32,207 bases of DNA from a virus, in the IMG/VR virus record IMGVR_UViG_3300028378_000016; one strand, written 5' to 3'. Under the pieces are notes generated by a model. That model saw only the letters and a list, made by a program, of their open reading frames with translations. It ran no database searches and had not been told where the DNA came from. Of the stretch, positions 10,290-32,128 are shown in pieces; the stretch's first letter is position 1; the number at the start of each line of letters is the position of its first letter. Both the position numbers and the translations under genes were made by a program.

Positions 10290-10298
10290 GGGGAATTT

Positions 10299-11909: not shown

Positions 11910-12904
11910 TGGCACCACCAACAGTTTACCGATGGGATGATGATAATGCACCGGTTTTGGCTATCAATGATTCTGACACTTCGGCTCTTGTCGAAATTGT
12001 TAAAGCATGTCTAGTTGACGGTTACGGCTCAAAGATGCCACCGGGGGCAGGATACAGCTTGGAATTTGAAAACGCAGACGGCACTGCTATTGCTATAAAA
12101 AGCCAATCTCCAGATAGCAACGGGTTCTATTATTCAGTAGCTACAGAGCAAGCTCTGTACGAAGACCCTTTAAAAGATGAACACATTAACATAATCAATA
12201 TGTACGAAAACATGACTGATGCGATCTCAGGCATAAACAGCACGTATCCAGGGCGTTTGTTTGCGTGTTTTGACGACGACTCCTCATATTATGACGAGCC
12301 TATTGCCTGGGTTTTAGTTGCAGATGATAGAGCCTTTTACTTATTTTTGTACATCGAAGGAGACTGGAAGCTATCTGAAAATCCTGATTTTGACTATATA
12401 ACAGCTTACAGCAATGGATTTTTTGGCGATTTCAACACAATCAGCCCTGATCCATGGTCTTCTCTTGTGTGGGGTTATTCGACCCTGGGAAACAGAGGTA
12501 GCAGGTTTGGGATGCTCGATGAGTATCGCAATAGTATGAGTGGCGCACAGGTAAAACGTAGCCGAGGTGGGCTAGATCTTGACGGACATGACGTCTCGAT
12601 ATATCACGGCGGAGGCCCTTTTTGGGCAGAAGACGGCATGGGGCACTCTAGTGATAGCGACAAGACCACGCCATTTGGTGAAGGTGAACCTACTTTTATT
12701 ACACGACCAATGCTTAGTGATACTACCGACCCAAAAAATTTTAGAGGGTATATTCCGGGGTTATACTATCCGTGCCACAATCGGCCATATAAAAACTTAG
12801 AGCAAGTAACGGTTGCTGATAAGACGTTTTTAGCAGTTAGAATACGTTTTTATCCGTACGATGATGGGCAGGTCTTGATTGATTTAGGCGATTGGCGAGC
12901 ATAA
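11909..12904 (+). CDS. Tail-associated protein, possibly a receptor-binding candidate, in an AT-rich island
   Basis: 331 aa. It is translationally coupled to its neighbour (TAATG). Its GC content is visibly lower than both neighbours. Confidence 0.45.
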   Translation: MAPPTVYRWDDDNAPVLAINDSDTSALVEIVKACLVDGYGSKMPPGAGYSLEFENADGTAIAIKSQSPDSNGFYYSVATEQALYEDPLKDEHINIINMYENMTDAISGINSTYPGRLFACFDDDSSYYDEPIAWVLVADDRAFYLFLYIEGDWKLSENPDFDYITAYSNGFFGDFNTISPDPWSSLVWGYSTLGNRGSRFGMLDEYRNSMSGAQVKRSRGGLDLDGHDVSIYHGGGPFWAEDGMGHSSDSDKTTPFGEGEPTFITRPMLSDTTDPKNFRGYIPGLYYPCHNRPYKNLEQVTVADKTFLAVRIRFYPYDDGQVLIDLGDWRA

Positions 12905-17550: not shown

Positions 17551-17931
17551 TTACACACCTCGCATTTGTACATATTCAAGAATTGACTTCTTGGCCTCGT
17601 CGAAGCCCTTACAAATATCAACTTTATAGCCGCAGTTCCGTAACCGCTCAATTTTATCTTTTTGGTCTTTGCTGGTCGAGCCGCCTTTGATCCTTTTCAT
17701 TTCGATAAAAAGACCGTGATACCCACCACGGGCGAGGGTGAAAAATAAATCTGGAACGCCAGCCTTGACACCTTCTGCCTTCATCTTTTTCGCAACTACA
17801 ACATTACGCAGACCACCGTTAGGGATTGCAAAAACGAACTCATCGTTGCCATTGAAGAACATGTCTGCCCATTGTATAAATTCAATCTGTTCTTGGCTCT
17901 CTGTTGGGAGTATTTGTTTCATTTGTTTCAT
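17551..17931 (-). CDS. VRR-NUC domain nuclease
   Basis: Pattern AIPNGG...GVKAGVPDLFF...GLFIEMK (PD-(D/E)xK type). The start at 17931 is preferred because gaaggag lies upstream; the ORF is open to 17976. Confidence 0.8.
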   Translation of the reverse strand: MKQMKQILPTESQEQIEFIQWADMFFNGNDEFVFAIPNGGLRNVVVAKKMKAEGVKAGVPDLFFTLARGGYHGLFIEMKRIKGGSTSKDQKDKIERLRNCGYKVDICKGFDEAKKSILEYVQMRGV

Positions 17932-18097
17932 CGCCCTTCTCCTTCTCAATCTGAAATATACTTTTTTCCCGCCCATCGTAGTGCAAGCATTTATATTCTG
18001 AACACCAATCGCCCTGTGATCGCTTGCACCAAGACTCAGGGCATAGGTCGTGCCGCCCGTATGCGTGACAGCCTTTTATCATTTTCTCACCTGCCAT
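17882..18097 (-). CDS. Small Cys/His-rich protein (71 aa)
   Basis: The ATG lies 1 nt after the MBL gene's stop, with GGAG 6 nt upstream. Reads MAGEKMIKGCHAYGRHDLCPESWCKRSQGDWCSEYKCLHYDG. It overlaps the VRR-NUC start by ~50 nt. Confidence 0.35.
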   Translation of the reverse strand: MAGEKMIKGCHAYGRHDLCPESWCKRSQGDWCSEYKCLHYDGREKSIFQIEKEKGDETNETNTPNREPRTD

Positions 18098-18098
18098 A

Positions 18099-18795
18099 TC
18101 AAGCTCCACAAACGTAAACAGGCACTCCCACAACTTCCTGCACCTTTCGCTTAAACAACTTTTCGTCACTATTGCCATCAGACAAATGTATCAAATGCAC
18201 CTCTTCCAGCTTGCCAATATCGTTCTCTTCGAAGAAATCCAGTACACGCTCAAGGCTCATATGAGAATCAAGCAATCTCTGTTTTTGTCCTGTCGGCATA
18301 TCCTGATCATTTAGAATATCGTTTGAAAAATTACACTCTATCATTATTTGAGTTAGTCCCTTAAACTTATATTCACAGTATGCAGTATCGGTTAAAAACA
18401 AAAGCTTTTCGCCCTTACTGTTGGCAATTAAAAAGCCAACAGGCTCAGCCGCATCGTGTACCGTTTTAAATGGCATTATGTCGAAATCGCCCAACTTGAA
18501 CTGGTTACCAGCACGGATGCGTTTACACCTATGCCCGCTTAATTGTAGTGCTAAAAACGTGCCTTTGGTTGCATATATGTCCATTCCTGCTTTTATTGCA
18601 TCCTTTGCACCTTTTGCATGGTCAAAGATGGTCGTGGGTTACGAGACACCCCACGACGGAAGACGTATCAAAATTCAATGCCTGTTTGATCTTACGGAAA
18701 GACAACCCAAACTCAATAAGTATAGATGTCTCTCCGCTTGAAACCAAATAGCAATTACCTTCTGAACTGCTCGCTATTGATTTTATTTTAAACAT
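18099..18795 (-). pseudogene. Metallo-beta-lactamase-fold hydrolase/nuclease gene split by a +1 frame change inside the HxHxDH motif
   Basis: The N-terminal 57 codons (18795-18622) end ...LVTHDHL-TGA. The +1 frame continues DHAKGAKDAIKAGMDIYATKG into the 161-aa ORF at 18099-18584. The start is coupled to the RecT stop (TAATG). Confidence 0.7.
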
Positions 18796-19631
18796 TAGTA
18801 ACCAGGATCCATTTCTTTTTTCAAGTCTGCTTCTGTTGATGCTTCGGTATCGTCAACCTGTTTAACTTCGCCAGTGTCAGTATCAACGTCGATAAAATCC
18901 TTGTTTCCATTATCAGAGTATCCACCATCTCCGACATAATCAGGATCCGCCTCTTGCGCCATACCGTCAGCCATACCGTCAGCCATATCAATAGACATTT
19001 GTCCATATTTACCGAGCAGCATTCTCAGCATGGTTTTTTCAGCCATTCCGTCAAACTCTTTTTTCCAAGGTGATGAATGTTGGTTGTATGACTTACTATA
19101 CTTTTTGCCATGCTCCCGCATATCGTCAATATTGCAATACATGGTTTTTTTGAAGCCGTTTATCGTTTCAATGTATGCAAAGTATCCGATAGGGTTTTCG
19201 CTTGTTTTCGTGCCTGTCAGGTCAATTTCTCCCGTCAGCTTACTTGATGATCTCAGTTCGCCTTCGTAAACAGTCCCGGCATTGATGCACCTATATACTC
19301 CGCTTCTCATTGCTAGTTGCACCAAGCCTTTATATCCAAGGATAAATTGAGGCTTTCCGCCGTATGCGATAATATAGGCAAAACCAAGAGACTTACTTAT
19401 AGGCAATTTCAACGTTGCCGCTTTTAATGCTTCCAGTACCACCAAGGCAGGTTCACACTTTTGGAGATAGCTGTCACCTGCGTAAAGGTCAACCAGTGAT
19501 GCAGTGAACAGATTAGCGTTATCAGCCAAGGCATTCTTGAACTGTTGCTGTATGCTATCGCTCGCCAGAACCTGTTTTAATTTGTCTACTGGTGTTGCTT
19601 GTTTTTTTGCTACTTCATTTCCTTGTGCCAT
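18795..19631 (-). CDS. recT: RecT-family single-strand annealing recombinase
   Basis: 278 aa. The pattern KCEPALVVLEALKAATLKLP...FILGYKGLVQLAMRSG is typical of RecT. The C-terminal tail is acidic. Confidence 0.85.
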   Translation of the reverse strand: MAQGNEVAKKQATPVDKLKQVLASDSIQQQFKNALADNANLFTASLVDLYAGDSYLQKCEPALVVLEALKAATLKLPISKSLGFAYIIAYGGKPQFILGYKGLVQLAMRSGVYRCINAGTVYEGELRSSSKLTGEIDLTGTKTSENPIGYFAYIETINGFKKTMYCNIDDMREHGKKYSKSYNQHSSPWKKEFDGMAEKTMLRMLLGKYGQMSIDMADGMADGMAQEADPDYVGDGGYSDNGNKDFIDVDTDTGEVKQVDDTEASTEADLKKEMDPGY

Positions 19632-19661
19632 TTTTGTCTCCTTTTATTTTATACGATAATA

Positions 19662-19690
19662 TGGTATTATGTTGTTAATTTATAATACCA
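19662..19690 (-). other. Intercistronic hairpin (9-bp perfect stem, 11-nt loop) between the ATPase and recT genes
   Basis: tggtattat ... ataatacca, read directly. Function is unknown; it could be an attenuator, a processing site or an operator. Confidence 0.4.
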
Positions 19691-19711
19691 CGTTATGATT
19701 TAATGTCTAGA

Positions 19712-21634
19712 TTATTCGACACGCAAAGTTTTATCCTGCTCAGAAACAATCAAGCTAATAACCTGCGCCCCAACTTCAGGAATGCTGGTTACGCTTTCCC
19801 TGTTATCAATAAAAATATTCGGTGAAAACTTATAGTGATTGCTCATCGTATTGATAATATCAAGACCTGCTTGAATCCGTGCTGCGTTATTCAGCGACCA
19901 GTAAGGCACACCGTCAACCGTCACTTCGCAAACTTCCCTCACGCCATCGTTAATTTGATCTTTAAACAATCGAAAAGAAACAAATGCAAACTTATTATTT
20001 ATCCGCTCTTCGAGCATCGAAACCTTTACCTTTATAAACTGCTCAATCAAAAACAAATGACCTTCGAGTATTTCGTATTCGTGGGCCAACGCTTTTTCTT
20101 GGGCGTTCAATTCTTCGATGCGCTTTTTGTTTTGCTCTGCCTGCTTTGCCGTTGATATTTGTTCCTCATAACTGGTTGCCTCGGCTCGTAATTCTGACCG
20201 TTTTTCCTTGATGGATTCTATTAGCTCGGTGTTTCCGTTTTCGAGTGATTTAACATCCTTTGTAAGCTCACATTGTTTAGATAAAGCTACTTGATATTCT
20301 TTATTATCAGCAAGCAGAGTAACAGCGTTTTCCAATACTTTTATTTCATTCTCAATGTCACGCTTTCCTTTCTCCTGAAACTTTATATTTTCGCCAAGCT
20401 CAGCAACTTCTTTTTTCTCCGCTGAAATAACGGTTTCATAGTTCTTGTTTTTGAAAGCCTGTTCCTTGCCTGCGGACTTGTTCGCCTCGATAAGATTTGA
20501 CTTATTGAGGTTAAACTTTTTTAAAGCCGCCTCTTCTTCTGTTGCAGTCATCGCCTTGCCGCACGTTGGGCAACTTTCAGCCGTAAATTCTTTCCCTACA
20601 ATCTGCTTGAACTCGCCCCGTAATCGCTCTAACTCGGCTTCGCCTTTTTTCAGGATATTTTCATGCCCGGCAATACTGTTTTTCTTGTTTTGAATTTCTC
20701 GGTTAAACTCTGCAATCCTGTCTTTAATTCCGCTCAATACTTTTTTCTTTTCGTAAATAGCAGAATTGTTTGTATTACCAAGCTCGCTTTTAATCTTTTC
20801 AATTTGATTATCGAGCGAGGCAATTTCGTTTCTCTTTTTACCTATCTCATCGCCGTTTTTAATTGAAAATATTTCTTGGTCTTTGCCCGCTACTTGTTTT
20901 CGTAATTCAGAAATCTTCTCATTTATTTCTGTGACATTTACATGCTCAACTTCATTCCTCGACAGCTCGTCGATACGTGCAGGAATACTTTTAATCTCGT
21001 CGTTTATCTTCTTTCTTGTTGCGCCAATTATCGCTTTTCTATCGTCGCATGTTTTGCCGTCAAGAATTGCAGGAAGACCGGATAAACTATCGTCCGAGTC
21101 AATAACGTCTTGATCCGTAATTCCTCCGCAAACCTCAAGCAGTAACTCCCGTTGTTTCTGCCAGGTTAAATTCTGCGAGAAATGTGTCGGGCTGGTGAGC
21201 AGTCGGAAAACATCCTCAGTACATGATAACGAAACCACCTTACTTGTAAAGTCTCCCTTGCTTGCAGGTACATCGTCAATAAAATAGTTGGTAGTGTGGC
21301 CAGTAAACTCCGCAACAGCCTGACCGCGCTTCTTGGTGTACTTTTCCTTGTAAATCTTTTTAAGTTTAATTGGTGAATCATCCAGTATGAAAACTGCCTC
21401 CACTTCATGTTCAAGTTTCGGAATCGCCACACCATCCTTCAAAGTCTTGATCTCAAATTGCTTCTGGTTAAGGCTGTCTTTATCGAACAGTAGCCAAGAA
21501 ACAGCGTCCATTAAGGTCGTCTTTCCAGTTGCATTATCACCAAAGATTTTTACGTCTTTGTTGTAAGTATCAAGGGTGAAATCCTTAATTCCTTTGAAGT
21601 TTCGCAGTACCAATTTTTGTAGTGTTAGTTTCAT
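19712..21634 (-). CDS. SbcC/Rad50-like SMC-type ATPase with coiled coil and a CxxC hook
   Basis: The start at MKLTLQKLVLRNFKG follows aaagggga. Walker A is GDNATGKTT. A long coiled coil carries CPTCGK. The C-terminus has IFIDNRESV. The track ORF extends to 21718. Confidence 0.8.
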   Translation of the reverse strand: MKLTLQKLVLRNFKGIKDFTLDTYNKDVKIFGDNATGKTTLMDAVSWLLFDKDSLNQKQFEIKTLKDGVAIPKLEHEVEAVFILDDSPIKLKKIYKEKYTKKRGQAVAEFTGHTTNYFIDDVPASKGDFTSKVVSLSCTEDVFRLLTSPTHFSQNLTWQKQRELLLEVCGGITDQDVIDSDDSLSGLPAILDGKTCDDRKAIIGATRKKINDEIKSIPARIDELSRNEVEHVNVTEINEKISELRKQVAGKDQEIFSIKNGDEIGKKRNEIASLDNQIEKIKSELGNTNNSAIYEKKKVLSGIKDRIAEFNREIQNKKNSIAGHENILKKGEAELERLRGEFKQIVGKEFTAESCPTCGKAMTATEEEAALKKFNLNKSNLIEANKSAGKEQAFKNKNYETVISAEKKEVAELGENIKFQEKGKRDIENEIKVLENAVTLLADNKEYQVALSKQCELTKDVKSLENGNTELIESIKEKRSELRAEATSYEEQISTAKQAEQNKKRIEELNAQEKALAHEYEILEGHLFLIEQFIKVKVSMLEERINNKFAFVSFRLFKDQINDGVREVCEVTVDGVPYWSLNNAARIQAGLDIINTMSNHYKFSPNIFIDNRESVTSIPEVGAQVISLIVSEQDKTLRVE

Positions 21635-21716
21635 CTTTTCCCCTTTAAAAGTTTTATCAAATCTGAACCCGTCAGCCAGTATGAAATCAATTGTTTCTTT
21701 TGCTTCTATACCTATC

Positions 21717-21744
21717 AATATACAGTGTTAAAAATATAAAGCAA
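21717..21744 (-). promoter_or_regulatory. Candidate leftward early promoter for the recombination operon
   Basis: On the - strand: TTGCTT, 16 nt, TATATT. Confidence 0.4.
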
Positions 21745-21788
21745 GGATAAAACAACCAACTTTAAATAATTTAATGCATAAAAATATA

Positions 21789-21836
21789 TTGCTATTTTTA
21801 AAACCATATTGTATTGTGTATTTATCGTAGTATAAA
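21789..21836 (+). promoter_or_regulatory. Candidate rightward early promoter(s)
   Basis: Two candidates: TTGCTA-17-TATTGT and TTGTAT-16-TATAAA. They lie in the 140-bp AT-rich divergent intergenic region before the gene at 21860. Confidence 0.4.
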
Positions 21837-21859
21837 ATCTTAAAAATAAGAGGTAAACA

Positions 21860-22081
21860 ATGATCTTTGCAGACGGAAGGGGAAAAGCTTTAACTGCTTA
21901 CCAAATAAATAGACGTATAAAAAACGTAGAAAGGGTTCGTGATTGGTTAAAAATAAACCCAGGAGGTCGGCCTAAAGATTGCGCAATGGATCTTGGGTTG
22001 AGCAATACAACTATATACTCTATTGCTAAACAGTTACGGGCAGAGAGAGCAGAGGATATTAAGGAGCATAGTAATGCATAG
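21860..22081 (+). CDS. Small HTH DNA-binding regulator
   Basis: 73 aa with an aagagg ribosome-binding site. The HTH-like stretch is RPKDCAMDLGLSNTTIYSIAKQL. Confidence 0.6.
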   Translation: MIFADGRGKALTAYQINRRIKNVERVRDWLKINPGGRPKDCAMDLGLSNTTIYSIAKQLRAERAEDIKEHSNA

Positions 22082-22907
22082 AGGATATCTAGCGCTATGG
22101 AGAAAACTTTCTGACCATCCTTTTTGGAAAGAAGAGAGAGAGTTTTCAAAAGCTGAGGCGTGGATAGATATTTTATGGGAAGTGCAACACAGCGAAAAAC
22201 CGCAAGAGGTGTTGCTTGGTATGACATGTCTTATATGCAACTATGGAGAGAGTTTAAAATCTCTTGAAACATGGTCTAAAAGGTGGAATTGGAATAAGTC
22301 GCGTGTTCGTAGGTTTTTCAAGTTATTAGAAAACATGGACCAAATCCGACACACCAGTGAACAAAAAACGACACGGATAACTGTCCTTAAATACAGTCAA
22401 TATGACCCAAGGCGAAACGCAACTGAAACGCAACTGAAACGACAGCGAAACGACAGTGAAACGCAAGCGACACCAGACAAGAATGTTAAGAATGTTAAGA
22501 ATGTTAAGAATGGTAAAAAAACTAAAGACATTGTTTTTAATCCTCATTCAATAAGGCCAGAATGGATAGAAGAAAAAGATTGGTCAGATATAATCCTTCA
22601 CAGAAAAAAGCACATAAAAAAACCACCTGAAACAGAACGAGCCTTTAACGGAATTATTAACCAGCTTGAAAAGGCGACTAAACAAGGTTTCTCATTAAAA
22701 GAATGTGTTGATCAAATGTGTTCAAGAGGCTGGCAGAGTTTTAATGTTGATTGGATGCCAGCAAAAAATGGGATTATGCAGCCAAGAAATAAAAAAGAGG
22801 TTCATGATGAAACAAGAGAACGATTTGCAAGGGAACTCCTCGAAGCAGGGGACACCGGATATAAACCAGATTATCGCCGCAATGAAGAGCTGGAGCATAA
22901 GATTTAA
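22074..22907 (+). CDS. Replication initiator-like protein carrying internal iterons
   Basis: aaggag lies 7 nt before the ATG at 22074. The N-terminus is winged-helix-like (YLALWRKLSDHPFWKE...SKAEAWIDILW). Tandem DNA repeats are embedded in mid-gene, as in lambda O. Confidence 0.55.
   Translation: MHRGYLALWRKLSDHPFWKEEREFSKAEAWIDILWEVQHSEKPQEVLLGMTCLICNYGESLKSLETWSKRWNWNKSRVRRFFKLLENMDQIRHTSEQKTTRITVLKYSQYDPRRNATETQLKRQRNDSETQATPDKNVKNVKNVKNGKKTKDIVFNPHSIRPEWIEEKDWSDIILHRKKHIKKPPETERAFNGIINQLEKATKQGFSLKECVDQMCSRGWQSFNVDWMPAKNGIMQPRNKKEVHDETRERFARELLEAGDTGYKPDYRRNEELEHKI
22414..22468 (+). repeat. Five tandem 11-bp iterons (GAAACGnnnnn), candidate replication origin
   Basis: gaaacgcaact gaaacgcaact gaaacgacagc gaaacgacagt gaaacgcaagc, read directly. 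The period is 11 bp. Confidence 0.6.
22479..22514 (+). repeat. Four tandem 9-bp repeats (aagaatgtt), followed by an A/T-rich stretch
   Basis: aagaatgtt occurs three times, followed by aagaatggt. Together they encode KNVKNVKNVKNG. Confidence 0.6.
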
Positions 22908-23367
22908 AGACAGGGCACCAACGGAAGCGGAAATGGTGATGTTGGCGAAGGAGTACCACGAAGACTTGAGGGAAGAAAAAATATCCAGTGAGTTGTTTTA
23001 TGAAATATGTATGATTCTTCGCAGAAAGAGTGAGTATTTCCCAAAAATAGCAAATGTTCTTTTCTATAAGCAAGAGGCACAAGAAATAATAAATCGCAGG
23101 AATATAGAGAAAGCTAAAAAAACACCAAAGATAGAAGACACGCGACATAAGCAAACTGGAGAATTTGGCGCAATATGTTCCGCTAATATCAATTTAATGA
23201 TAAATGGTAGTATCAGTATGGAAAGAGCTATCCACTTAAACACACCTATATATCTGGATGGCAGAATAGACATGGAGAGGGTTAGTGATAGGAACAAACA
23301 CCTTGATAGCAAGAGCCTACCAAACCCAAGTTCTTTTGTGAAAAGTTTACATAAATCAATCGGATAA
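22804..23367 (+). CDS. Hypothetical replication-module protein
   Basis: The ATG at 22804 follows aagagg; the track ORF is open from 22705. It overlaps the 3' end of the initiator-like gene. Confidence 0.5.
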   Translation: MMKQENDLQGNSSKQGTPDINQIIAAMKSWSIRFKDRAPTEAEMVMLAKEYHEDLREEKISSELFYEICMILRRKSEYFPKIANVLFYKQEAQEIINRRNIEKAKKTPKIEDTRHKQTGEFGAICSANINLMINGSISMERAIHLNTPIYLDGRIDMERVSDRNKHLDSKSLPNPSSFVKSLHKSIG

Positions 23368-23377
23368 AAACATGAGC

Positions 23378-23440
23378 AAATACCAAGGAGTAAATTATGA
23401 CGGCTGAAAACAGCAAACCAACTAAAATTGTAGATGTAAC
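23378..23440 (+). repeat. Repeat R1, copy A (about 63 bp), near-identical to 31602-31664
   Basis: aaataccaaggagtaaattatgac(g/t)gctgaaaacagcaaaccaac...aattgtagatgtaac is shared with a few substitutions. Confidence 0.85.
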
Positions 23441-23492
23441 GGCTGAACTAACCTGCCCCAAGCATTTTACCGACCAACTTGATACGGAGTGA
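23397..23492 (+). pseudogene. 31-codon truncated paralogue of the 116-aa ORF at 31621
   Basis: MTAENSKPTKIVDVTAELT... here versus MTAENSKPTRIVDVTHQLT... at 31621. The ribosome-binding site (aaggag) is the same. The sequences diverge after R1 and this copy stops early. Confidence 0.4.
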
Positions 23493-23571
23493 CGAGCTTG
23501 AATAACTTACCAAAGTCATTTGAAAAACCGCTGTGCTTGGGGTCAGAGTTAAGTGATTTGTTCTGTGATTA

Positions 23572-24015
23572 TTAACGCTTATTGAATTTATTGGCTAATG
23601 CGCTTATGCCTTGTGTAATTTTTGGAACAATATAGCTATGTACTTTAGGAGAAAGATCCTGTTCGTTTATTTTGAGAAAACAACTGATTATAAGTTTTGC
23701 CGTTTTATCTGGTAAGACCCCAATATGTTTTAGCTTCTTGTCGATAGTCTTTTGACTGAACGGGAAACAATCGTCGAGCTGTATCCATGTGTCCTTTTTG
23801 AAGAAAGGGCTGTTTGATCGGACAAAATAAACTTGATGATAGTTTTCAATACAACCTGGATTATCAGGTTTTGAATGTTTTTGGGATGTAGTTTTTACCA
23901 GCAGATATGGATCATTAGAGGCAGGATTGTTTAAGAGAACGAGAAGTTTTTTACCTTTTGTGCCATCGGAAAAAATGAAGTTTTCGGCAACAAAAATCGA
24001 GCCACGAGCAAACAC
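23572..24015 (-). CDS. Candidate toxin, MazF/PemK-like by motif layout, partner of the Panacea-domain gene
   Basis: The GTG at 24015 lies 1 nt after the upstream stop, with GGAG 9 nt upstream. GSIFVAENFIFSDGTKGKKLLVLLN...YLLVKTTSQ...DTWIQLDD...IGVLPDKTAKLI parallels the MazF strand order. The ORF is open to a TTG at 24075. Confidence 0.5.
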   Translation of the reverse strand: MFARGSIFVAENFIFSDGTKGKKLLVLLNNPASNDPYLLVKTTSQKHSKPDNPGCIENYHQVYFVRSNSPFFKKDTWIQLDDCFPFSQKTIDKKLKHIGVLPDKTAKLIISCFLKINEQDLSPKVHSYIVPKITQGISALANKFNKR

Positions 24016-24016
24016 T

Positions 24017-24583
24017 TTATGCGACTCCGAAATTGTGCAACATTTCTTGACGTTCGCGATGACGCTGTTTTGCAATATCGACAGGTAATTTTTTAGCAGA
24101 TTTACTGTCTATAGCTAAAGCATAATCAATTAATGCCAACATTCCTTTGGTTGCCTTGGTTGTGTTCCAAGGTTCATTTGGTAAATGGGAAATGTCAGAT
24201 ATTTCTTTTGCTTGAACATCTCGAAAAATTAATGAAATGTCTTTTAATAATTTTAATTCTCTAGGAGAGAAAAAGTCTAAGTCAGGTTTTTTCCCTTTTT
24301 TGGGGGCGATATGTTGGAAATCACCAGTGTCTTTGACGGTAACTAAAGATTTTAAGTCTTTTTGGGGAGAATCACTGATCTCTTCAAAAAATATTTTGGG
24401 GACAGGGCCTTGTTCCCATGCAAAATAGTTTAAATCTGTGACTGATTTACCAGTATTTTTGAAGTGCATAAAATCCAGAAAATATAATAATTTCATGAGC
24501 TTCGTTTTTCCACAAAATTTTGTTTTTTGTGAAAAATACAGAACTGCATTTATTAGCTTTTCTCTGGAATGTGTAATTATCAT
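24017..24583 (-). CDS. Panacea (DUF4065, SocA/PanA-like) domain antitoxin
   Basis: LINAVLYFSQKTKFCGKTKLMKLLYFLDFMHFKNTGKSVTDLNYFAWEQGPVP is the typical DUF4065 core. The start at M43 (24583) is preferred because the longer ORF runs upstream of the predicted promoter. Confidence 0.75.
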   Translation of the reverse strand: MIITHSREKLINAVLYFSQKTKFCGKTKLMKLLYFLDFMHFKNTGKSVTDLNYFAWEQGPVPKIFFEEISDSPQKDLKSLVTVKDTGDFQHIAPKKGKKPDLDFFSPRELKLLKDISLIFRDVQAKEISDISHLPNEPWNTTKATKGMLALIDYALAIDSKSAKKLPVDIAKQRHRERQEMLHNFGVA

Positions 24584-24638
24584 AGCGAAGATATCAATAC
24601 TCTGGTTACTGTTTTTCGTCAATAACTGTCTTTTCTTT

Positions 24639-24667
24639 ATGATATTGCGTGATAAAGGGAATGTCAA
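24639..24667 (-). promoter_or_regulatory. Promoter of the toxin-antitoxin cassette
   Basis: On the - strand: TTGACA, 17 nt, TATCAT. Confidence 0.5.
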
Positions 24668-24688
24668 ATTTGCATACACAGAACGACC

Positions 24689-24826
24689 TAGCTCACGGGA
24701 TTTTTGCAATTAAACCAAAAAATGAGGATTGAAAACATGAACACAGATAAACCCGAAAATAAGCTCGAAGCCGGACGTGCAAAATTCCGGTGCAGCGTTT
24801 TGTTGGGTGGACGGATAAAAACGGTG
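24689..24826 (+). repeat. Repeat R2, copy A (138 bp), about 95 percent identical to 31989-32128
   Basis: tagctcacgggatttttgcaattaaacc...ggataaaaacggtg is shared. I counted two 1-nt indels and about 4 substitutions by eye. Confidence 0.85.
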
Positions 24827-24921
24827 AAAGATAAAAATGTATATGTTTTTCTATTGACACTCCTTTGATAATGCTGTATATTATAATCATAAACAAAGGG
24901 AATTAACCCAAAAAAAAAAGG
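24817..24921 (+). repeat. Promoter module P, copy 1 (about 105 bp), near-identical to 25997-26102
   Basis: aaaaacggtgaaagataaaaatgtatatgtttttctattgacactcctttgataatgctgtatattataatcataaacaaagggaattaaccc(a)n-ggaga. The only difference is poly-A length. Confidence 0.9.
24854..24882 (+). promoter_or_regulatory. Strong sigma70-type promoter (P copy 1)
   Basis: TTGACA, 17 nt, TATATT. An imperfect AT-rich palindrome (aaaaatgtatatgttttt) lies just upstream. Confidence 0.65.
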
Positions 24922-24929
24922 AGATCAAC

Positions 24930-25217
24930 ATGAAAGCAATAATCGACATCATCAAAGCAGAAAATAAAAACGGACTGCATGACATCATTATAGCTCGCTA
25001 TAATAAGGACATCGAAGTTAATCTCAACACGGGCATCATGGACAACGAGATTCCTGAAATTGGCGAGACATTAACTGATGGAAATAGGGACATGATGGTT
25101 ATTGGTCATGTAGTTATTGACGGATCAGTTGGAGTTAAGTTTGAAAATTTCCCTTCAATTGTAGCGGGTTCTCAAATAGTTAAGATGTTGTCCGATGATA
25201 CAGTGAGGGTTAAATAA
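24930..25217 (+). CDS. Small acidic hypothetical protein (95 aa)
   Basis: A ggaga ribosome-binding site is present. It is the first gene after promoter P. About 15 acidic versus about 10 basic residues. Confidence 0.6.
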   Translation: MKAIIDIIKAENKNGLHDIIIARYNKDIEVNLNTGIMDNEIPEIGETLTDGNRDMMVIGHVVIDGSVGVKFENFPSIVAGSQIVKMLSDDTVRVK

Positions 25218-25558
25218 TGACACCAGAAAAAGCAAAAAACATTTATTGGGGAGCAATGCCGCTCCCCAAAGGGGCAAAATCTTTAGGCGAATACACAAGC
25301 CTCGGAAAGCGTGGGTGTTTGATCGAGCTGGCTAATGGCAAGCGTGTTGTAGGTAACGCTGGTGTGATCCGCAGTGTTAGAGGTGGAGCAATGCCAGGTG
25401 CCGGTGCACCTAAAAAGCCAGATTGGTTAAAGAAACGTCAAATCGGATTGCAGTTGCCCAACTGGATTATTGATAAATTGGATAATTTACCAGGAAGTAG
25501 ATCCACGGAAATTGAAGATGCTTTAATTGACAAATATGGGTGGAAGCCACCAAGGTAG
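25217..25558 (+). CDS. Hypothetical protein with a C-terminal ribbon-helix-helix-like segment
   Basis: TAATG coupling to the previous gene. RQIGLQLPNWIIDKLDNLPGSRSTEIEDALIDKYG resembles a CopG/Arc-type strand-helix-helix. Confidence 0.5.
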   Translation: MTPEKAKNIYWGAMPLPKGAKSLGEYTSLGKRGCLIELANGKRVVGNAGVIRSVRGGAMPGAGAPKKPDWLKKRQIGLQLPNWIIDKLDNLPGSRSTEIEDALIDKYGWKPPR

Positions 25559-25597
25559 TCCACCCAACCTAAATGACACTGATAGGAGGCAGAAATT

Positions 25598-25753
25598 ATG
25601 TATTGTTATTTATGTGGCAGAAAATTACATAATAACGACGGACACGATCTCAGGCAGCCTTCCGGCTACACAAGAAAAGTGCACTTTCGGTGTTACGAAA
25701 AATACAGATTAAAAAGAGAAGCAGATTTAAATCAAAACCTAAAGCGAGGATAG
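25598..25753 (+). CDS. 51-aa zinc-ribbon-like protein, below the ORF-track cutoff
   Basis: AGGAGG lies 7 nt before the ATG. Reads MYCYLCGRKLHNNDGHDL...VHFRCYEKYRLKRE. I prefer it over the track ORF at 25527..25712 in another frame. Confidence 0.45.
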   Translation: MYCYLCGRKLHNNDGHDLRQPSGYTRKVHFRCYEKYRLKREADLNQNLKRG

Positions 25754-25757
25754 TAAA

Positions 25758-25976
25758 ATGAAAAGCGGATACTACATAAAACGATGTAAAGATGACTCTC
25801 AAATGTTGCTATTAATTCAAGAGTGGCGAATTAACCCGAAAAGTCGCATTCATACGGAGGTAGCTGCAATTATTCATGAAGATAATATGCAAGGTTTAGA
25901 CCAAGATACTATACGGCAACTAGACAACGGTGCAATTATTGAAATGGAATTTCACGTAAAAGAAGAGGATGAATAA
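25758..25976 (+). CDS. Small acidic hypothetical protein (72 aa)
   Basis: gcgagga lies before the ATG. The C-terminus is acidic (KEEDE). Confidence 0.55.
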   Translation: MKSGYYIKRCKDDSQMLLLIQEWRINPKSRIHTEVAAIIHEDNMQGLDQDTIRQLDNGAIIEMEFHVKEEDE

Positions 25977-26015
25977 ATGGAAAATTCTAAACTACAAAAA
26001 AACGGTGAAAGATAA
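25977..26015 (+). pseudogene. Duplicated 5' fragment of the pentapeptide-repeat gene (MENSKLQK...), cut off by promoter module P
   Basis: atggaaaattctaaactacaaaaaa at 25977-26001 is identical to 26109-26133. The fragment reads into P and stops after 12 codons. Confidence 0.5.
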
Positions 26016-26102
26016 AAATGTATATGTTTTTCTATTGACACTCCTTTGATAATGCTGTATATTATAATCATAAACAAAGGGAATTAACCCAAAAAAAAGG
26101 AG
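25997..26102 (+). repeat. Promoter module P, copy 2
   Basis: See copy 1; the sequences match apart from poly-A length. Confidence 0.9.
26035..26063 (+). promoter_or_regulatory. Strong sigma70-type promoter (P copy 2) driving the pentapeptide-repeat gene
   Basis: TTGACA, 17 nt, TATATT. Confidence 0.65.
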
Positions 26103-26108
26103 ACCCAA

Positions 26109-26657
26109 ATGGAAAATTCTAAACTACAAAAAATGTTGAAAGCTCATAAAATTTGGATAGATTCGGATAAAAAGCAGGGAGAACAAGCCAATTTTTGCGG
26201 AGCCGATCTTCGTGAAGTCGATTTTTGTGGATTCGATCTTCGTGAAGCCAGTTTTTGCGGATGCGATCTTTCCGGATGCGATTTTTATGGGTCCGATCTT
26301 CGTGAAGCCAGTTTTTATGAATCCGAACTTCGTGGAGCTAATTTTCGCGGATGCGATCTTCGCAGATGCGATTTTTATGGGTCCGATCTTCGTGAAGCCA
26401 ATTTTTGTGAAACCGATTGTTATAAAGCCAAATTTTGTGAAACCGATCTTCGCGGATGCGATATTCGTAGAGCCAATTTTTATAAAGCCGATTTTCGCGA
26501 ATCCAATCTTCGCGGAGTCGATTTTCATAGATCCAAATTTTATAAAACCAATTTTTATGAAACCAATCTCTATGGATCCAATTTTCGCGGAGCCATTGTT
26601 CTCGGATCCAATCTTCATGAAGCCAATCTTGATTTTTTCAACGGGAGTTTCGTGTAA
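26109..26657 (+). CDS. Pentapeptide-repeat protein with 30 uninterrupted A(D/N)(L/F)xx units, Cys-rich
   Basis: Residues 27-176 parse without a gap as ANFCG ADLRE VDFCG FDLRE ... SNLHE ANLDF. About 11 Cys are present. The DNA shows 15/30-nt periodicity. Confidence 0.85.
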   Translation: MENSKLQKMLKAHKIWIDSDKKQGEQANFCGADLREVDFCGFDLREASFCGCDLSGCDFYGSDLREASFYESELRGANFRGCDLRRCDFYGSDLREANFCETDCYKAKFCETDLRGCDIRRANFYKADFRESNLRGVDFHRSKFYKTNFYETNLYGSNFRGAIVLGSNLHEANLDFFNGSFV

Positions 26658-26722: not shown

Positions 26723-26812
26723 ATGCGCAATCTAATCTGGAGCGGTTTTGTCGTGATGGTCATCGTGCCCGCATTCTATCTTGTTGCTGGCTTCATCGAA
26801 AAACTTAACTGA
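26723..26812 (+). CDS. 29-aa hydrophobic membrane peptide
   Basis: gaggag lies 6 nt before the ATG. Reads MRNLIWSGFVVMVIVPAFYLVAGFIEKLN. Confidence 0.35.
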   Translation: MRNLIWSGFVVMVIVPAFYLVAGFIEKLN

Positions 26813-27009
26813 GGAGAAAAAAATTAAAAATTCTAAACTACAGAAAATGTTGAAGACCTGGCAGAGATATTACCATTCGGGGAGTATGGAAAAATTCAAA
26901 TTAAAGAATTGGCGGCACTTCTTCAAGCTTACGGCTATCGAAGCCCAAGGTCTTAAGGAAATACCATGAAAAAAGGTTTGTCTCTTTTGCATAATAATTA
27001 TATTTGGTA

Positions 27010-27085: not shown

Positions 27086-27187
27086 ATGACCGCCAGCCAA
27101 AGACAAAAGGATTTTTCTCATGTCATTATTGATACCGACGGAAACGAGTATGATAATTATTATGGCGAAAAATTGGTGAAAAACTAA
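27086..27187 (+). CDS. 33-aa small protein
   Basis: ggaagggg lies before the ATG. It has TAATG coupling to the next gene. Reads MTASQRQKDFSHVIIDTDGNEYDNYYGEKLVKN. Confidence 0.4.
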   Translation: MTASQRQKDFSHVIIDTDGNEYDNYYGEKLVKN

Positions 27188-27858
27188 TGGAACCTAAATC
27201 ATACAAAAAAACTAATGCCAAGAAAAAGGTCCGAGCTTGTAAAAGAGGAACAGCCTCACAAGCAATCGGTATTATAGAAAAAGAATCCGACACCTTTATT
27301 CTTACCTACGGACAGTTTTCCTTGATTGACGCCTTGGTGGCGATACTCGACCAAACAGGGCCAGCCCATGTTTCGGTAAGCACATGGACGGCGGCTCATG
27401 CTGACCTGTCTCGATCCGCCGAACTAATGGAGGCTGTAAACATCTTATCATTAAGGATGATTGTAGATAGATCATTTAAAACCCGCCAGCCTAAATATTA
27501 CGAACATATGATATGTCTGTTCGGCGAGGAAAGTATTCGGGCTATTAACACCCATGCTAAATTTATGACGATCAGGAACGAAAAATTCGACATTGTTGTA
27601 AGGACGTCGATGAATCTCAACGGTAACCCTAGACTTGAAAATATAGAGGTTTCTGAAAATAGCGAGTTCGCCGACTTTTTTGAAGAGATTGTGACTGGAA
27701 TATTTGAAGAGGTTGAGCCTGGGGAGCAAATATCTAACCCGCCGGAACTGAACCAAATAGAAGAAAGTCCGCTGTTTAAGCTGGTATCTGGTAAACATAT
27801 TGATTCATCAAATTTAAAGGAGGCATCGTATAGCCATGAGCTCGACAAAAAACTTTAA
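27187..27858 (+). CDS. PLD-like (single HKD-type, Nuc-like) domain protein
   Basis: THAKFMTIRNEKFDIVVRTSMNLN resembles HxK...(G/T)SxN. The N-terminal part (FILTYGQFSLIDALVAILDQ) resembles the PLD-fold start. Confidence 0.5.
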   Translation: MEPKSYKKTNAKKKVRACKRGTASQAIGIIEKESDTFILTYGQFSLIDALVAILDQTGPAHVSVSTWTAAHADLSRSAELMEAVNILSLRMIVDRSFKTRQPKYYEHMICLFGEESIRAINTHAKFMTIRNEKFDIVVRTSMNLNGNPRLENIEVSENSEFADFFEEIVTGIFEEVEPGEQISNPPELNQIEESPLFKLVSGKHIDSSNLKEASYSHELDKKL

Positions 27859-29463: not shown

Positions 29464-31402
29464 TATCCAGGCTGCCCTGGCGTCGGGCATGAAACCCCTT
29501 ATTGTACCGGAACCATTGACCATGGAAGAATGGGCCGAAAAGCATTTTTACCTTTCGCCGGAATCGTCGAGCATAACCGGCCAGTGGGAAACGCTGCCTT
29601 ATCAACGGGCCTGGCTTAAATGGTTTGGTAATGATGATATTGAAATAGTCGACTGCATGAAAGCGGCCCGCCTGGGCTATACAAAGTGCATAATGATAGC
29701 AGCCGGCTATTTCGTTGAACACCGCCACCGCAACATTGTTGTATTTCAACCGACCGACGGCGACGCCAAAGACTTTGTCAAAGATGAAATAGACACTATG
29801 CTGCGCGACGTGCCTATCGTGGGCAACCTGTTACGCTGTGATGCCGACGCCAAAAGCCCATACAACACCAACGACAAAAAGGTTTTTCAAACGTCAATTT
29901 TGGACATACGCGGCGGCCATAGCGCCAGGAATTACCGACGTATGACCAAAGATGTAGTCATATATGAAGAGCTTGACGCCTTTGAGCAGGATATCGACAA
30001 AGAGGGCAGCCCGCTATCTTTGGGTGACGTCCGCGTCGAAACGTCGTCTTTTCCAAAATCACTACGCGGCACCAGCCCAAAAACAAAGGGCCTTTCGCAT
30101 ATTGAGGCCAGCATTGAAACCGCCGACATGATTTTTCGGCGGTATCTGCCCTGCCCGATGTGCGGCAATATAGATTATCTGAAATGGCCAAACATGCGTT
30201 TTGACAGCAAGGCATTGACCGTTGCAACCATGCGTTGCGAGTTGTGCCACTACCATGCCGACTATGGCGAATATGGCAAAATGGATGCTGCCGGACAATG
30301 GCGCACCGAAAACGGCTACTATTACAGGGAAGATATCGACAAGTTTTTCAGCCCAGCCGACGAGGTTGTCGGTCCGCCCCGGCACCTGGGTATAAAAATC
30401 TGGTCGGCGTATAGCTATTTTAACACCTGGACAAAAATTGCAAGTGAATTTCTGGCAGCCAACAAGGCTTTGCAAACCGGGGATAAAAGCAAAATCAAGA
30501 CGTTTACAAATACCAAACTTGGCGAGACATACGAAGAAGTTGGGGAAAAGATCGAGGAAACGCTTTTTGATGACAGGCTGGAACAATGGCCGGATGGCTG
30601 CATACCCAAAGGCATTCTTGTTATCACCATGTCGGTGGACGTCCAGGGCGGCAAGAATGCCCGCCTGGAGCTGGAGGTGGTCGGCTGGGGCAGGGATGGT
30701 GAAAGCTGGTCGTTACTCTATGAGAAAATCAACGGCGATCCTGAATTTAAGGAAGTTTGGGACCATTTAGAGCAGTACCGGAAAACCACCTTTTTTCGCG
30801 AGGACGGCGTACCGTTGAAAATTCGCTGTACCACCGTTGATTCCGGCTTTAATTCAACAGCCGTCTATAAGTACACCACCCCCAAAAAACGCCAACGGGT
30901 CTTTGCCACAAAGGGCCATTCTACAGCTGGCAAGCCCCTGGTCAGTAAACCCAGCCTGGTTGGCACCAGGAAAGAAACGCCACTGTACATGATCGGCACC
31001 GATACCGCCAAAGAAACACTATTTACCCGCTTGCAGATTGAAGAAAGCGGGCCGGGGTATTGCCATTTTCCCATTGGCCGGGACCCTAAATATTTTGAAC
31101 AGCTCACCGCCGAAGAACGGAAAATCTTCTATGAACGCGGCGAAAAGAAAATACGCTTTGTAAAGAAAAAGGCCAACGCCAGGAATGAAGCTATAGACCT
31201 ACGTGTTGGCAATATGGTGGCCCTGGAAATACTCAACCCCAGCTTTGCTGCCCTGGAAAAACGCTATAATACTCTGGCGGCCAAATACCAGGAACAATTT
31301 GACCAGGACGACCAGGCAGAACGCCAGGCGCAGAAAGCAAAAAAGAAGATGAAACCCAAACGACGAACCAGGGAAAACGGGTGGACGAATGGCTGGAAAT
31401 AA
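29441..31402 (+). CDS. Terminase large subunit, lambda GpA family
   Basis: 653 aa with the YQRAWLKWFGNDDIEIVDCMKAARLGYTKC region, a CPMCG...CELCH zinc-finger-like segment and a C-terminal nuclease half. Confidence 0.9.
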   Translation: MENILTSNIQAALASGMKPLIVPEPLTMEEWAEKHFYLSPESSSITGQWETLPYQRAWLKWFGNDDIEIVDCMKAARLGYTKCIMIAAGYFVEHRHRNIVVFQPTDGDAKDFVKDEIDTMLRDVPIVGNLLRCDADAKSPYNTNDKKVFQTSILDIRGGHSARNYRRMTKDVVIYEELDAFEQDIDKEGSPLSLGDVRVETSSFPKSLRGTSPKTKGLSHIEASIETADMIFRRYLPCPMCGNIDYLKWPNMRFDSKALTVATMRCELCHYHADYGEYGKMDAAGQWRTENGYYYREDIDKFFSPADEVVGPPRHLGIKIWSAYSYFNTWTKIASEFLAANKALQTGDKSKIKTFTNTKLGETYEEVGEKIEETLFDDRLEQWPDGCIPKGILVITMSVDVQGGKNARLELEVVGWGRDGESWSLLYEKINGDPEFKEVWDHLEQYRKTTFFREDGVPLKIRCTTVDSGFNSTAVYKYTTPKKRQRVFATKGHSTAGKPLVSKPSLVGTRKETPLYMIGTDTAKETLFTRLQIEESGPGYCHFPIGRDPKYFEQLTAEERKIFYERGEKKIRFVKKKANARNEAIDLRVGNMVALEILNPSFAALEKRYNTLAAKYQEQFDQDDQAERQAQKAKKKMKPKRRTRENGWTNGWK

Positions 31403-31631
31403 ACCGAAACTTGCCGGGTCCAGATTGGGCCCGATTTTATACCGCGACAACGCTGAAATTGCCGACGCCCTAGGCGTCAATCATAACGATATCAAGGTAC
31501 TGGTCGACAAACACGGGCTCCCGGCATTTAAGATCGGCGGCCGGGGAAAATGGAAACTACGCCAGGCAGACCTTGACGCCTGGCTGATAGATCAACAAGA
31601 AAAATACCAAGGAGTAAATTATGACTGCTGA
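31389..31631 (+). CDS. Excisionase/MerR-type HTH DNA-binding protein
   Basis: IADALGVNHNDIKVLVDKHGLPAFKIGGRGKWKLRQADLDAWL matches the excisionase-family HTH pattern. Confidence 0.6.
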   Translation: MAGNKPKLAGSRLGPILYRDNAEIADALGVNHNDIKVLVDKHGLPAFKIGGRGKWKLRQADLDAWLIDQQEKYQGVNYDC

Positions 31632-31664
31632 AAACAGCAAACCAACCAGAATTGTAGATGTAAC
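31602..31664 (+). repeat. Repeat R1, copy B
   Basis: See 23378-23440. Confidence 0.85.
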
Positions 31665-31971
31665 ACATCAATTGACCAGCAAGGGCAAGGGCCGCACTCT
31701 GCTTTATTTGTGCGACGATGACAAATACTACACACAGGTGGAACTGGCTCGATTGATACCGATGTCACAGCCAGGCTTTTCCGCACGACTTGCTCGGAGG
31801 GGATGGAGACACCCGCGCATTTTACACAAAGACATGAATTCAACATCGAGTGGTCCGCGCAATGATGACAACGCCGAGCTCGGCGACCTGACCGGGCTGT
31901 CGGCAAATCCGCGAGACAGCAACCTAAAAAAAATCACTATTGGAACGTTTGAGAGAGGTTATTATGCGTAA
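31621..31971 (+). CDS. Hypothetical 116-aa protein, possibly HTH, the cargo between R1 and R2 copy B
   Basis: aaggag ribosome-binding site. YTQVELARLIPMSQPGFSARLARRGW is HTH-like. Confidence 0.55.
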   Translation: MTAENSKPTRIVDVTHQLTSKGKGRTLLYLCDDDKYYTQVELARLIPMSQPGFSARLARRGWRHPRILHKDMNSTSSGPRNDDNAELGDLTGLSANPRDSNLKKITIGTFERGYYA

Positions 31972-31988
31972 TTGCCGCTATAACGTTT

Positions 31989-32128
31989 TAGCTCACGGGA
32001 TTTTTGCAATTAAACCAAAAAAATGAGGATTGAAAACATGAACACAGATAAACCCGAAAATAAGCTCGAAGCCGGACGTCCAAAAATTCCGCTGCAGCGT
32101 TTTGTTGGGTTGACGGATAAAAACGGTG
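31989..32128 (+). repeat. Repeat R2, copy B (140 bp); its tail lies in the terminal overlap
   Basis: See 24689-24826. Confidence 0.85.

Follow-up and report, generated by a model that had tools for sequence, protein, structure and literature searches.

A probable integron-type cassette array carrying a Panacea toxin-antitoxin unit in a phage genome

Clusters of attC sites lacking integron integrases (CALINs) have been described in both temperate and virulent phages, where they include methyltransferase cassettes and where IntI1 recombined five of six such sites (Qi et al. 2023, PMC9892861), while toxin-antitoxin (TA) cassettes with promoters of their own are recognized as a class apart in sedentary chromosomal integrons (Richard et al. 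2024, PMC13108822). Insertion at attG sites is likewise documented (Loot et al. 2024, Nat Microbiol 9:228, as cited in PMC12901181), and type II pairs of a Panacea antitoxin (PanA) with an EndoA/PemK/MazF-like toxin (PanT) are known and have been validated (Kurata et al. 2022, PMC8832971). Here we analyze the 32,207-nucleotide DNA of IMG/VR virus record IMGVR_UViG_3300028378_000016 (hereafter the window), in which a self-promoted Panacea/candidate toxin pair lies between two repeats, R1 and R2, at positions 23378-24826 (locus A); the same repeats recur around a 116-aa open reading frame (ORF) at 31602-32128 (locus B). A preliminary description made from the sequence took R1 and R2 for a reusable landing pad for cassette exchange. 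We propose that locus A is probably a two-cassette array of integron-type cassettes, that is, an attC cluster without an integrase, residing in a phage genome.

The locus resembles the phage CALINs (PMC9892861) in its attC anatomy, in unit ends at AA↓C (the arrow marking the crossover), in co-oriented arrays, in the methyltransferase cassettes of its relatives and in the lack of a phage integrase. Unlike in integron cassettes and CALINs, however, all ORFs outside the TA unit are encoded on the bottom strand, downstream of their site, at least two units bring promoters of their own, and the L boxes of the sites repeat TAAC in the sense of the R boxes; and whereas mobility was established by an IntI1 assay in Qi et al. 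2023, here it is documented by natural variants in which the same cassette occupies several sites. No integron platform (intI, attI, Pc) was found. With the TA cassettes of chromosomal integrons (PMC13108822) the unit shares a two-gene TA operon, a promoter of its own, an attC and a place among other cassettes, but it is found in phage genomes and pairs PanA with a MazF-fold toxin candidate. As in attG insertion, cassettes are joined to ordinary sequence at GTT/AAC outside integrons (in the 116-aa ORF, at stop codons and in a terminator loop). The pair itself recalls PanA-PanT (PMC8832971), both in the placement of a DUF4065/Panacea gene directly upstream of a small toxin candidate of MazF-like fold and in its phage association, and differs in that its toxin family is without a Pfam model and in that it exists both as a chromosomal locus (in Desulfobacterota) and as a mobile cassette. 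What locus A adds to these systems is evidence from natural variants that cassettes now move among phage genomes whose backbones differ, a cassette in which PanA is paired with a MazF-fold protein, and a way to explain the flank pattern.

The TA unit and its attC-like site

The TA gene cassette spans 1,244 nt (23440-24683, its top strand being the minus strand of the window) and comprises a promoter, panA, the gene for the MazF-fold toxin and a 127-nt folded site, at a GC content of 35.5% against 47.3% for the genome. The conserved block, which includes shared core bases (23437-24684), was found by exact-protein look-ups and one metagenome scan at 99.9-100% identity in contigs L015/L039, L017, L030, L031 and L032, with ends that are identical in five different left and six different right flanks, all otherwise unrelated to those of the window. 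These are short-read metagenome contigs, and it is the junctions, not whole contexts, that were counted; one context was assembled twice independently, from ENA (L015) and JGI (L039) data. None of them features R1 or full-length R2, the last ~30 nt of R2 being kept only in L015/L039, and the neighbors of the unit include radical-SAM and Mom genes, a DUF2800 nuclease module and two DNA methyltransferases. The unit has no terminal inverted repeats, no target-site duplications and no recombinase gene. Its left-junction TAAC is already present in two uninterrupted proxies for the target, namely at 31661-31664 in the intact 116-aa gene and at the stop codon of a 68-aa L042 gene, the very place where L030 holds the TA cassette; the right end reads GAAC, or TAAC in L031. 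The TA unit is a discrete mobile unit that ends at AA↓C. The cargo reported in the preliminary description is real, but its ends, given there as 23441 and 24688, are better placed at 23440 and 24683, with the crossover in TAA↓C and GAA↓C. Of the exchange by homologous or site-specific recombination proposed there, apparent site-specific traffic is retained and R1/R2 as a paired landing pad is not, since the unit occurs elsewhere without R1 and without full R2.

At its left end the unit carries an attC-like site of 134 nt (23433-23566, with the bottom strand of the site on the plus strand of the window). The site opens with a hybrid R' box (GATGTAA↓C), a spacer (GGCTG) and an L' box (AACTAAC), continues through the stem CTG-CCCCAAGCA...TGCTTGGGG-T(23543)-CAG-A(23547), and closes with an L'' box (GTTAAGT), a spacer (GATTT) and an R'' box (GTTCTGT, 23560-23566); read on the opposite strand, TAA↓C becomes G↓TTA, the crossover of integron sites. 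When the two ends of the unit are joined, CACAGAAC pairs with GTTCTGTG (23560-23567) in an R stem of 8 bp, inward of which the 5-nt spacers are unpaired. Beyond them comes a bulged L stem, in which TAAC pairs with GTTA and one of the arms has two single bases unpaired, and then a stem of 9 bp that closes a loop of 67 nt. For the joined ends, folding gives z values of -3.9 and -3.1, with none of 200 shuffles folding as well. The two unpaired bases, position 20 and T24 (A23547 and T23543), are on the arm that faces AAC. An attC site is an imperfect palindrome of about 57-141 nt, bounded by an R' box with AAC on the bottom strand and an R'' box with GTT, and IntI preferably recombines its bottom strand. 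In attC sites, two or three extrahelical bases occupy positions 16/20/23-24 of the arm opposite AAC, with a conserved T at 23/24 (PMC5027507, Nivina 2016), the central spacer is unpaired and the terminal structure is variable (PMC5027507; PMC2727003, Bouvier 2009).

The same layout recurs in compact sites of 55-66 nt in L025, L026, L031 and L042, whose stems differ and yet remain complementary. It is also found in L045, a contig from a Desulfobacterales metagenome-assembled genome (MAG) with a TA pair 85% identical to that of the window: the 60-nt site there has R'', spacers and L boxes as in the TA site and a different, short stem-loop, and the unit again begins G↓TTCTGT. Across lengths of 55-134 nt, all sites start with ...AAC, or ACC in one case, and end with GTT...; central spacers of 5-6 nt per arm are unpaired in both folds and alignment, and terminal loops range from 5 to 69 nt. 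Position 20 and T24 are unpaired in the TA site, L025m, L026m and L042b, and T24 alone in L045; none of the compact sites has a G at position 16. A covariance model constructed from six sites matches the TA site (E=0.0011) and recovers held-out sites in L031 (E=2.5e-5 and 0.017), L015/L039 (0.012) and L042c (0.19), all co-oriented with the TA site; it detects no further site in the window, and no Rfam family matches the sites. In the L stem, 10 of 13 pairs show double changes and 94% of cells pair, with a covariation score of 0.43, on an alignment that was fitted to the model, as compared with 0.16 for shuffles (0/500) and at most 0.11 for slid controls.

A further property of these sites concerns the opposite end of the respective unit. 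The R'' box is complementary to the far end of its own unit at 7/7 positions in the TA, L042b, DUF5662 (where the far end is at the stop codon) and MT-A70 units (exactly where the TA unit abuts), at 6/7 in the Dcm and at 5/7 in the L042m1 unit; over the six, 21 of 24 variable positions are complementary (P=2e-10), which is the signature of circular permutation. The DUF5662 site is joined to two different left partners, and no hairpin follows its ORF. The opposite polarity, with the site 3' of the ORF, was rejected given this lack of a hairpin after DUF5662 and the movement of the TA unit together with its left hairpin. The sites stand in co-oriented arrays, in the order MT-A70/TA/Dcm/next unit in L031, and number three model matches plus a fourth recognized by eye in L031, three in L042 and two in L025. 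In the window, the TA site and R2-A, the latter on weaker evidence, are 1.2 kb apart with no intI nearby, as in a CALIN, where two or more attC sites cluster in the absence of an intI gene.

Methyltransferase genes occupy cassette positions in two relatives: Dcm-type and MT-A70 genes adjoin the TA unit in L031 (134-958 and 2258-2842), and two ORFs next to the R2-B-type site in L038 (414-2126) are methyltransferases by eye from their motifs. Such cassettes agree with those seen in phage CALINs.

The repeated flanks and the neighboring unit

The window assembles as a circle of 32,080 bp with a terminal overlap of 127 nt (SPAdes-type), and the same circle was rebuilt independently by MEGAHIT at k141 (32,221 = 32,080 + 141). 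Contigs of 100% identity from further JGI, ENA and Logan samples span all four flank junctions: L021 covers 23262-26448, L011 covers 17570-24718, and L002 and L003 run from 24638 and 26326 round to 124 and 123, respectively. A chimeric assembly is excluded for practical purposes, which bears out the preliminary description, where a k-mer misjoin was judged unlikely and the mapping of raw or long reads across the junctions was named as a check. The gene content is that of a phage, with Nu1/GpA terminase, portal, capsid and tail genes, RecT and an O/DnaD-like replication protein, and no integrase is present among the genes of the window. No DNA relatives were found among GenBank phages, nor any relatives in IMG/VR by terminase, by a 30-mer of R2 or by the cassette end.

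Formal alignment confirms that the two loci share both flanks in the same order and orientation, as first described. The R1 copies (23378-23440 and 31602-31664) are identical at 60/63 positions, or at 66/72 when extended to 23369/31594, and the R2 copies (24689-24826, plus strand, as first delimited, and 31989-32128) at 135/140 with two 1-nt indels; the longest exact shared stretch, viewed directly in the alignment, is 57 nt, matching the earlier figure of about 57 bp. Locus A itself varies in nature. Contig L042 is 100% identical to the window until 23384 and then carries two other cassettes in place of R1, the TA unit and most of R2-A, and Logan contig L012, from another sample, stops at 23384, the exact point of that divergence. 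The population is heterogeneous at locus A.

R1-A (23378-23440, plus strand) belongs to a truncated copy of the 116-aa gene, of which it keeps the ribosome-binding site (RBS) and the initial 14 codons, and ends in TAAC (23437-23440). The intact orphan gene lies at 31621-31971 on the plus strand, with R1-B (31602-31664) as its 5' end and TAAC at both 31661-31664 and 31981-31984. R1 is nothing but the start of this gene, with the cut at a TAAC also found in the intact copy. R1-A has two private substitutions, as expected of a decaying fragment, and its ORF stops after 31 codons; an ORF scan agrees with the original reading that copy B completes the 116-aa ORF where copy A is cut short. The gene has one homologous cluster only, with a representative at 94% identity. 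In L025-L029 it is found elsewhere in the accessory region, where R1 and 88 nt of the sequence upstream accompany it, its terminator hairpin (GCCGCTA..TAGCGGT) is intact and R2 is missing; cassettes follow it there at GAGTAA↓C. The 116-aa ORF is hence a resident gene and not the cargo between two flanks it was first taken for, and R1 is its 5' stump and not one half of a paired landing pad. That the ORF might instead be a cassette was rejected, as it has no upstream site and no partner box. Four array junctions fall in or near the gene: AAATAC↓C in L042, GATGTAA↓C at locus A, CTATAA↓C at locus B and GAGTAA↓C in L025-29. It was also observed that the 116-aa orphan is the left neighbor of cassette arrays in four different settings, and that its product contains, by eye, a helix-turn-helix (HTH)-like stretch (YTQVELARLIPMSQPGFSARLARRGW). 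Upstream of it, an 80-aa HTH_17 gene (31389-31631, plus strand; PF12728, E=2.9e-9) overlaps R1-B with its last 30 nt.

R2-A can be extended to a long attC-like site (24678-24808, plus strand) with a hybrid R' box (ACAGAA↓C), a stem formed by GCTCACGGGATTTTTGCA and TGCAAAATTCCGGTGCAGC, a 69-nt loop and an R'' box GTTGGGT. The adjacent unit (24684-25567, plus strand) would comprise this site, a segment J, the P1 promoter and genes for 95 and 113 aa, and ends in ACCCAA↓C. The R'' box (24802-24808) is a 7/7 complement of the ACCCAAC at 25562-25568, one of only two such 7-mers on the plus strand in 32 kb; this copy lies 4 nt past the stop codon of the 113-aa gene and ~10 nt from the point where L042/L023 diverge, with the same placement in L043. 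R2 is joined at xAA↓C to four left partners: the TA unit, the 116-aa gene, unrelated DNA downstream of a VapE-like gene (L036/L043) and methyltransferases (L038). Taken with its R' box, R2 yields an R stem, spacers of 5/4 nt, a long stem with unpaired positions 16/20(/24) and the 69-nt loop, and short hairpin variants with the same GTTGGGT stand at the same place upstream of J and P in L015 and L042c. R2-A is probably the long attC of the adjacent unit, which, with its four partners, gives R2 the part of a recombination site instead of that of a passive flank of a landing pad, as had been supposed. A small ORF inside R2 is probably not a real gene, being frameshifted in R2-A and showing only non-synonymous differences among four copies.

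A second, positionally conserved attC-like site, R2-B (31978-32110, plus strand), is joined at CTATAA↓C in the loop of the 116-aa gene's terminator hairpin; to its right, 18 nt of J (TGACGGATAAAAACGGTG) follow the R'' box before late-region DNA begins. L038 has the same right neighbor, with methyltransferase genes on the left. R2-A is closest to the P-linked copies of L036/L043 and R2-B groups with the late-operon copy of L038, so that the two are old positional paralogues. A recent duplication of locus B was rejected, as R2-A and R2-B fall into different positional lineages.

The decamer AAAAACGGTG, at which the preliminary description saw three junctions break, is indeed present in three genomic copies (24817, 25998 and 32119, with 39-48 being the terminal overlap; 0.12 expected), but it is not the crossover: cassette-end partners change at AA↓C, and the junction of the second P module lies in an A-run shared with the 5' end of a pentapeptide-repeat gene, so that the decamer was rejected in that role. 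It is part of the body of the neighboring unit and marks a separate, short-homology type of junction. The P modules, 101 nt each and 100% identical, occupy 24817-24917 (with a TTGACA-17-TATATT promoter at 24854-24882) and 25998-26098 (upstream of the pentapeptide-repeat gene), both on the plus strand. In relatives (L023, L042, L043) other genes stand behind P, with divergence setting in directly after RBS and start codon. P modules and gene starts are shuffled by short homology, separately from the AA↓C junctions. T4-type promoter early stem-loop (PeSL) elements are said to be mobile regulatory cassettes, which the P modules resemble in their position at gene boundaries of a hyperplastic region with different genes behind them in relatives; the TA, DUF5662 and methyltransferase units, by contrast, move by AA↓C junctions at attC-like hairpins and not by promoter homology. 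Another short repeat, the 11-mer CGGATAAAAAC, occurs left of R1-A (23361-23371, including the stop of a 144-aa gene) and at the end of J (24812-24822), with ~0.3 chance matches expected by our own estimate.

Two further genes to the right of the locus were inspected. The pentapeptide-repeat protein (182 aa, 26109-26657; PF00805, E=2e-43) is encoded by DNA repeats periodic at 15 nt, and the 5' end of its gene (RBS and first ~10 codons) exists in three copies (25966-26008, 26098-26140 and 26812-26854), two of which are remnants that point to earlier rearrangements. A 223-aa protein (27187-27858) shows, by eye, an HxK...N-like motif (HAKFMTIRNEKFD...TSMNLNGN) that recalls nucleases of the phospholipase D (PLD) family, and has no Pfam match.

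Proposed assembly of the locus and competing explanations

On the reading we favor, the TA unit would excise as a circle, and the bottom strand of its site (the plus strand of the window) would fold and be recombined by an integron integrase supplied in trans by the host, the partner being a secondary site of attG type or the R' box of an attC already in place. At locus A, a copy of the 116-aa gene would have lain beside the resident unit 24684-25567 and been joined, at its TAAC in codons 14-15, to the site of that unit; the rest of the copy would have been deleted and R1-A left behind, after which a TA circle would have inserted at the R' box of R2-A. At locus B, an older R2-type site would have been joined at the TAAC 10 nt past the stop of the intact 116-aa gene, inside the terminator loop. 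Both loci could then be junctions between the 116-aa gene and an R2-type site at two TAACs 320 nt apart, which is why their flanks would match and their contents differ. The model predicts a circular-cassette junction ...TTTGCATACACAGAAC↓GGCTGAACTAACCTGCC... and an empty site ...ATTGTAGATGTAAC↓GACCTAGCTCACGGG....

Several observations weigh against this proposal. No integron integrase or other recombinase was found in the window or in the fetched parts of relatives, and we therefore infer both a host enzyme acting in trans and the link to a host. No empty site, with R1 joined to R2-A, was seen in a look-up of the exact R2-A/P peptide, all 8 contigs with the exact R2-A/P sequence carrying the TA unit. 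The canonical orientation, with the ORF on the top strand and attC 3' of it, holds for the TA unit only: the ORFs of the DUF5662, MT-A70, Dcm, 72-aa and P-95-113 units occupy the attC bottom strand and have the site on their 5' side. Since integrons are known to contain both inverted cassettes and cassettes with promoters, this orientation is not disqualifying. The L boxes, with TAAC/GTTA, run in the sense of the R boxes, a point in which class 1 attCs differ, and one junction, in L042, is AAATAC↓C instead of AA↓C. With regard to R2, the covariance model does not detect it, its folding z values are weak (-0.8 to -2.5), and the four copies show neither covariation nor compensatory changes in their arms. 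To these we add the fitting of the covariation alignment to the model, the lack of a model match in ~290 kb of Desulfobacterota loci (L049-L078), which yielded no link to a host integron, and the caveat that the flanks of a 1.2-kb repeat may lie on different molecules, so that only the junctions are secure.

R1 and R2 are real, their order is shared by the two loci and their length suffices for RecT-type annealing, and variant L042 has a different cargo at locus A, all of which would suit a dedicated paired landing pad whose cargos are swapped by homologous recombination, for example by the phage RecT. We nevertheless regard such a pad as distinctly improbable: the TA unit has identical ends in five other contexts without R1 or full-length R2, the 116-aa ORF moves in relatives with R1 and without R2, the L042 replacement breaks at 23384 and 24785, away from the R1/R2 borders, the positional lineages of R2-A and R2-B differ, and diverse cargos lying exactly between an intact R1 and an intact R2 were not seen in the relatives examined. 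A chimeric metagenome assembly as the source of the repeats or cargo junctions is scarcely credible. Short-read assemblers do break at R2, with Logan contigs ending 30 nt into it (24718 and 32018) and L002 extending between R2-A and R2-B; yet SPAdes-type and MEGAHIT assemblies, with overlaps of 127 and 141 nt, give the same 32,080-bp circle, and 100%-identical contigs of several samples pass over every junction.

A separate attC-like phage cassette system, in which the hairpin sites are real recombination sites used by a recombinase other than IntI, such as an unrecognized phage or host enzyme, would accord with the failure to find IntI in the window, the fetched relatives or the searched Desulfobacterota loci, with the inversion of most ORFs relative to site polarity, with the L boxes repeating the TAAC of the R boxes in the same sense, and with the presence of the HTH-like 116-aa orphan to the left of arrays in four settings; we consider it unlikely, as every structural property of attC is present, including the AA↓C crossover and unpaired 20/24, and IntI1 recombines the attCs of phages that lack an integrase. 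We would assign similarly minor weight to a phage-adapted system in the accessory regions of this uncultivated phage population, with hosts probably among the Desulfobacterota, in which attC-like sites 5' of promoter-bearing forward genes are shuffled between backbones by a non-classical recombinase or a co-opted host IntI, and in which the HTH-like orphan, a constant neighbor of the arrays, could be part of the machinery. Much less plausible still is that the TA unit is a non-autonomous single-strand transposon of IS200/IS605 or IS91 type, inserted 3' of TAAC by an HUH transposase in trans. Insertion beside a conserved tetranucleotide, no target duplication or terminal inverted repeats, and a right end of the unit that is itself GAAC/TAAC would all conform to this. 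Elements of the IS200/IS605 type, however, have a subterminal hairpin at each of their two ends and depend on a Y1 HUH transposase, in cis or in trans. Here each unit has one hairpin at one end only, the box by the hairpin is complementary to the far end of the unit, which is the circular-permutation signature of integrons, the units are stacked in co-oriented arrays, and neither a Y1 nor a Y2 transposase turned up in the window or the fetched relatives. An array of integron-type cassettes remains the explanation we favor.

The toxin-antitoxin pair and what the locus means

The cargo of locus A was first described as a self-promoted Panacea/toxin pair, and domain match, fold model and promoter all support that description. 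The PanA antitoxin (24017-24583, minus strand) matches SocA_Panacea (PF13274, E=1.7e-18) and is most likely 188 aa long with the start MIITHSREK..., which is favored because it lies downstream of the promoter and agrees with the start in L045. One base past its stop begins a 147-aa ORF (23572-24015, minus strand) that matches no Pfam and no PHROG family, belongs to a protein family of 54 clusters and yields an AlphaFold model with a mean confidence (pLDDT) of 88.8; a Foldseek comparison of this model with the PDB returned MazF/PemK toxins (27 matches at E<=1e-3, with E ~1e-4 and TM scores up to 0.74), making the protein a candidate toxin of MazF/PemK-like fold as modeled. The sigma-70-like promoter inside the cassette (24667-24639, minus strand; TTGACA-17-TATCAT) agrees with consensus at 11/12 positions and is kept in the L045 homologue as TTGACA-17-TATAAT, read directly. 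As in PanA-PanT, a Panacea (DUF4065) protein is encoded in a two-gene operon with a toxin candidate, here across a 1-nt gap. The pair is conserved across 35 genomic loci (L044-L078), nearly all of them from Desulfobacterota and most of them plain chromosomal loci without an attC-like site. The pair would most likely serve as an addiction/stabilizing module or as a defense module.

The toxin family is nearly confined to Desulfobacterota MAGs, with single matches in MAGs of a few other phyla, a distribution that hints at the host range of the phage. In L033, an ENA contig (ERZ22147072) of a bacterial chromosome, a Panacea/toxin homologue (9520-12454; toxin protein 86% identical) adjoins a GmrSD-type restriction gene in a defense-island-like setting and has no attC-like site. 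In L044, from an Anaerohalosphaeraceae MAG, an 84%-identical copy of the cassette (2832-3951) has the same terminus, A↓TTCTGTG, and has lost its site after ACAG; it looks like a decayed, immobilized cassette.

The attC clusters of phages have so far mainly been predicted sites recombined by the class 1 integrase in the laboratory, and what the present locus brings to them is natural variation in the wild, where whole arrays differ between phages with common backbone genes. It further illustrates that matching flanks with different contents can come from attC sites joined to secondary sites in a neighboring gene, without any landing pad. If our reading is true, integron-type recombination would be a working route for the exchange of phage accessory genes such as TA pairs and anti-restriction methyltransferases, and cassettes could pass between bacterial hosts by way of phages.

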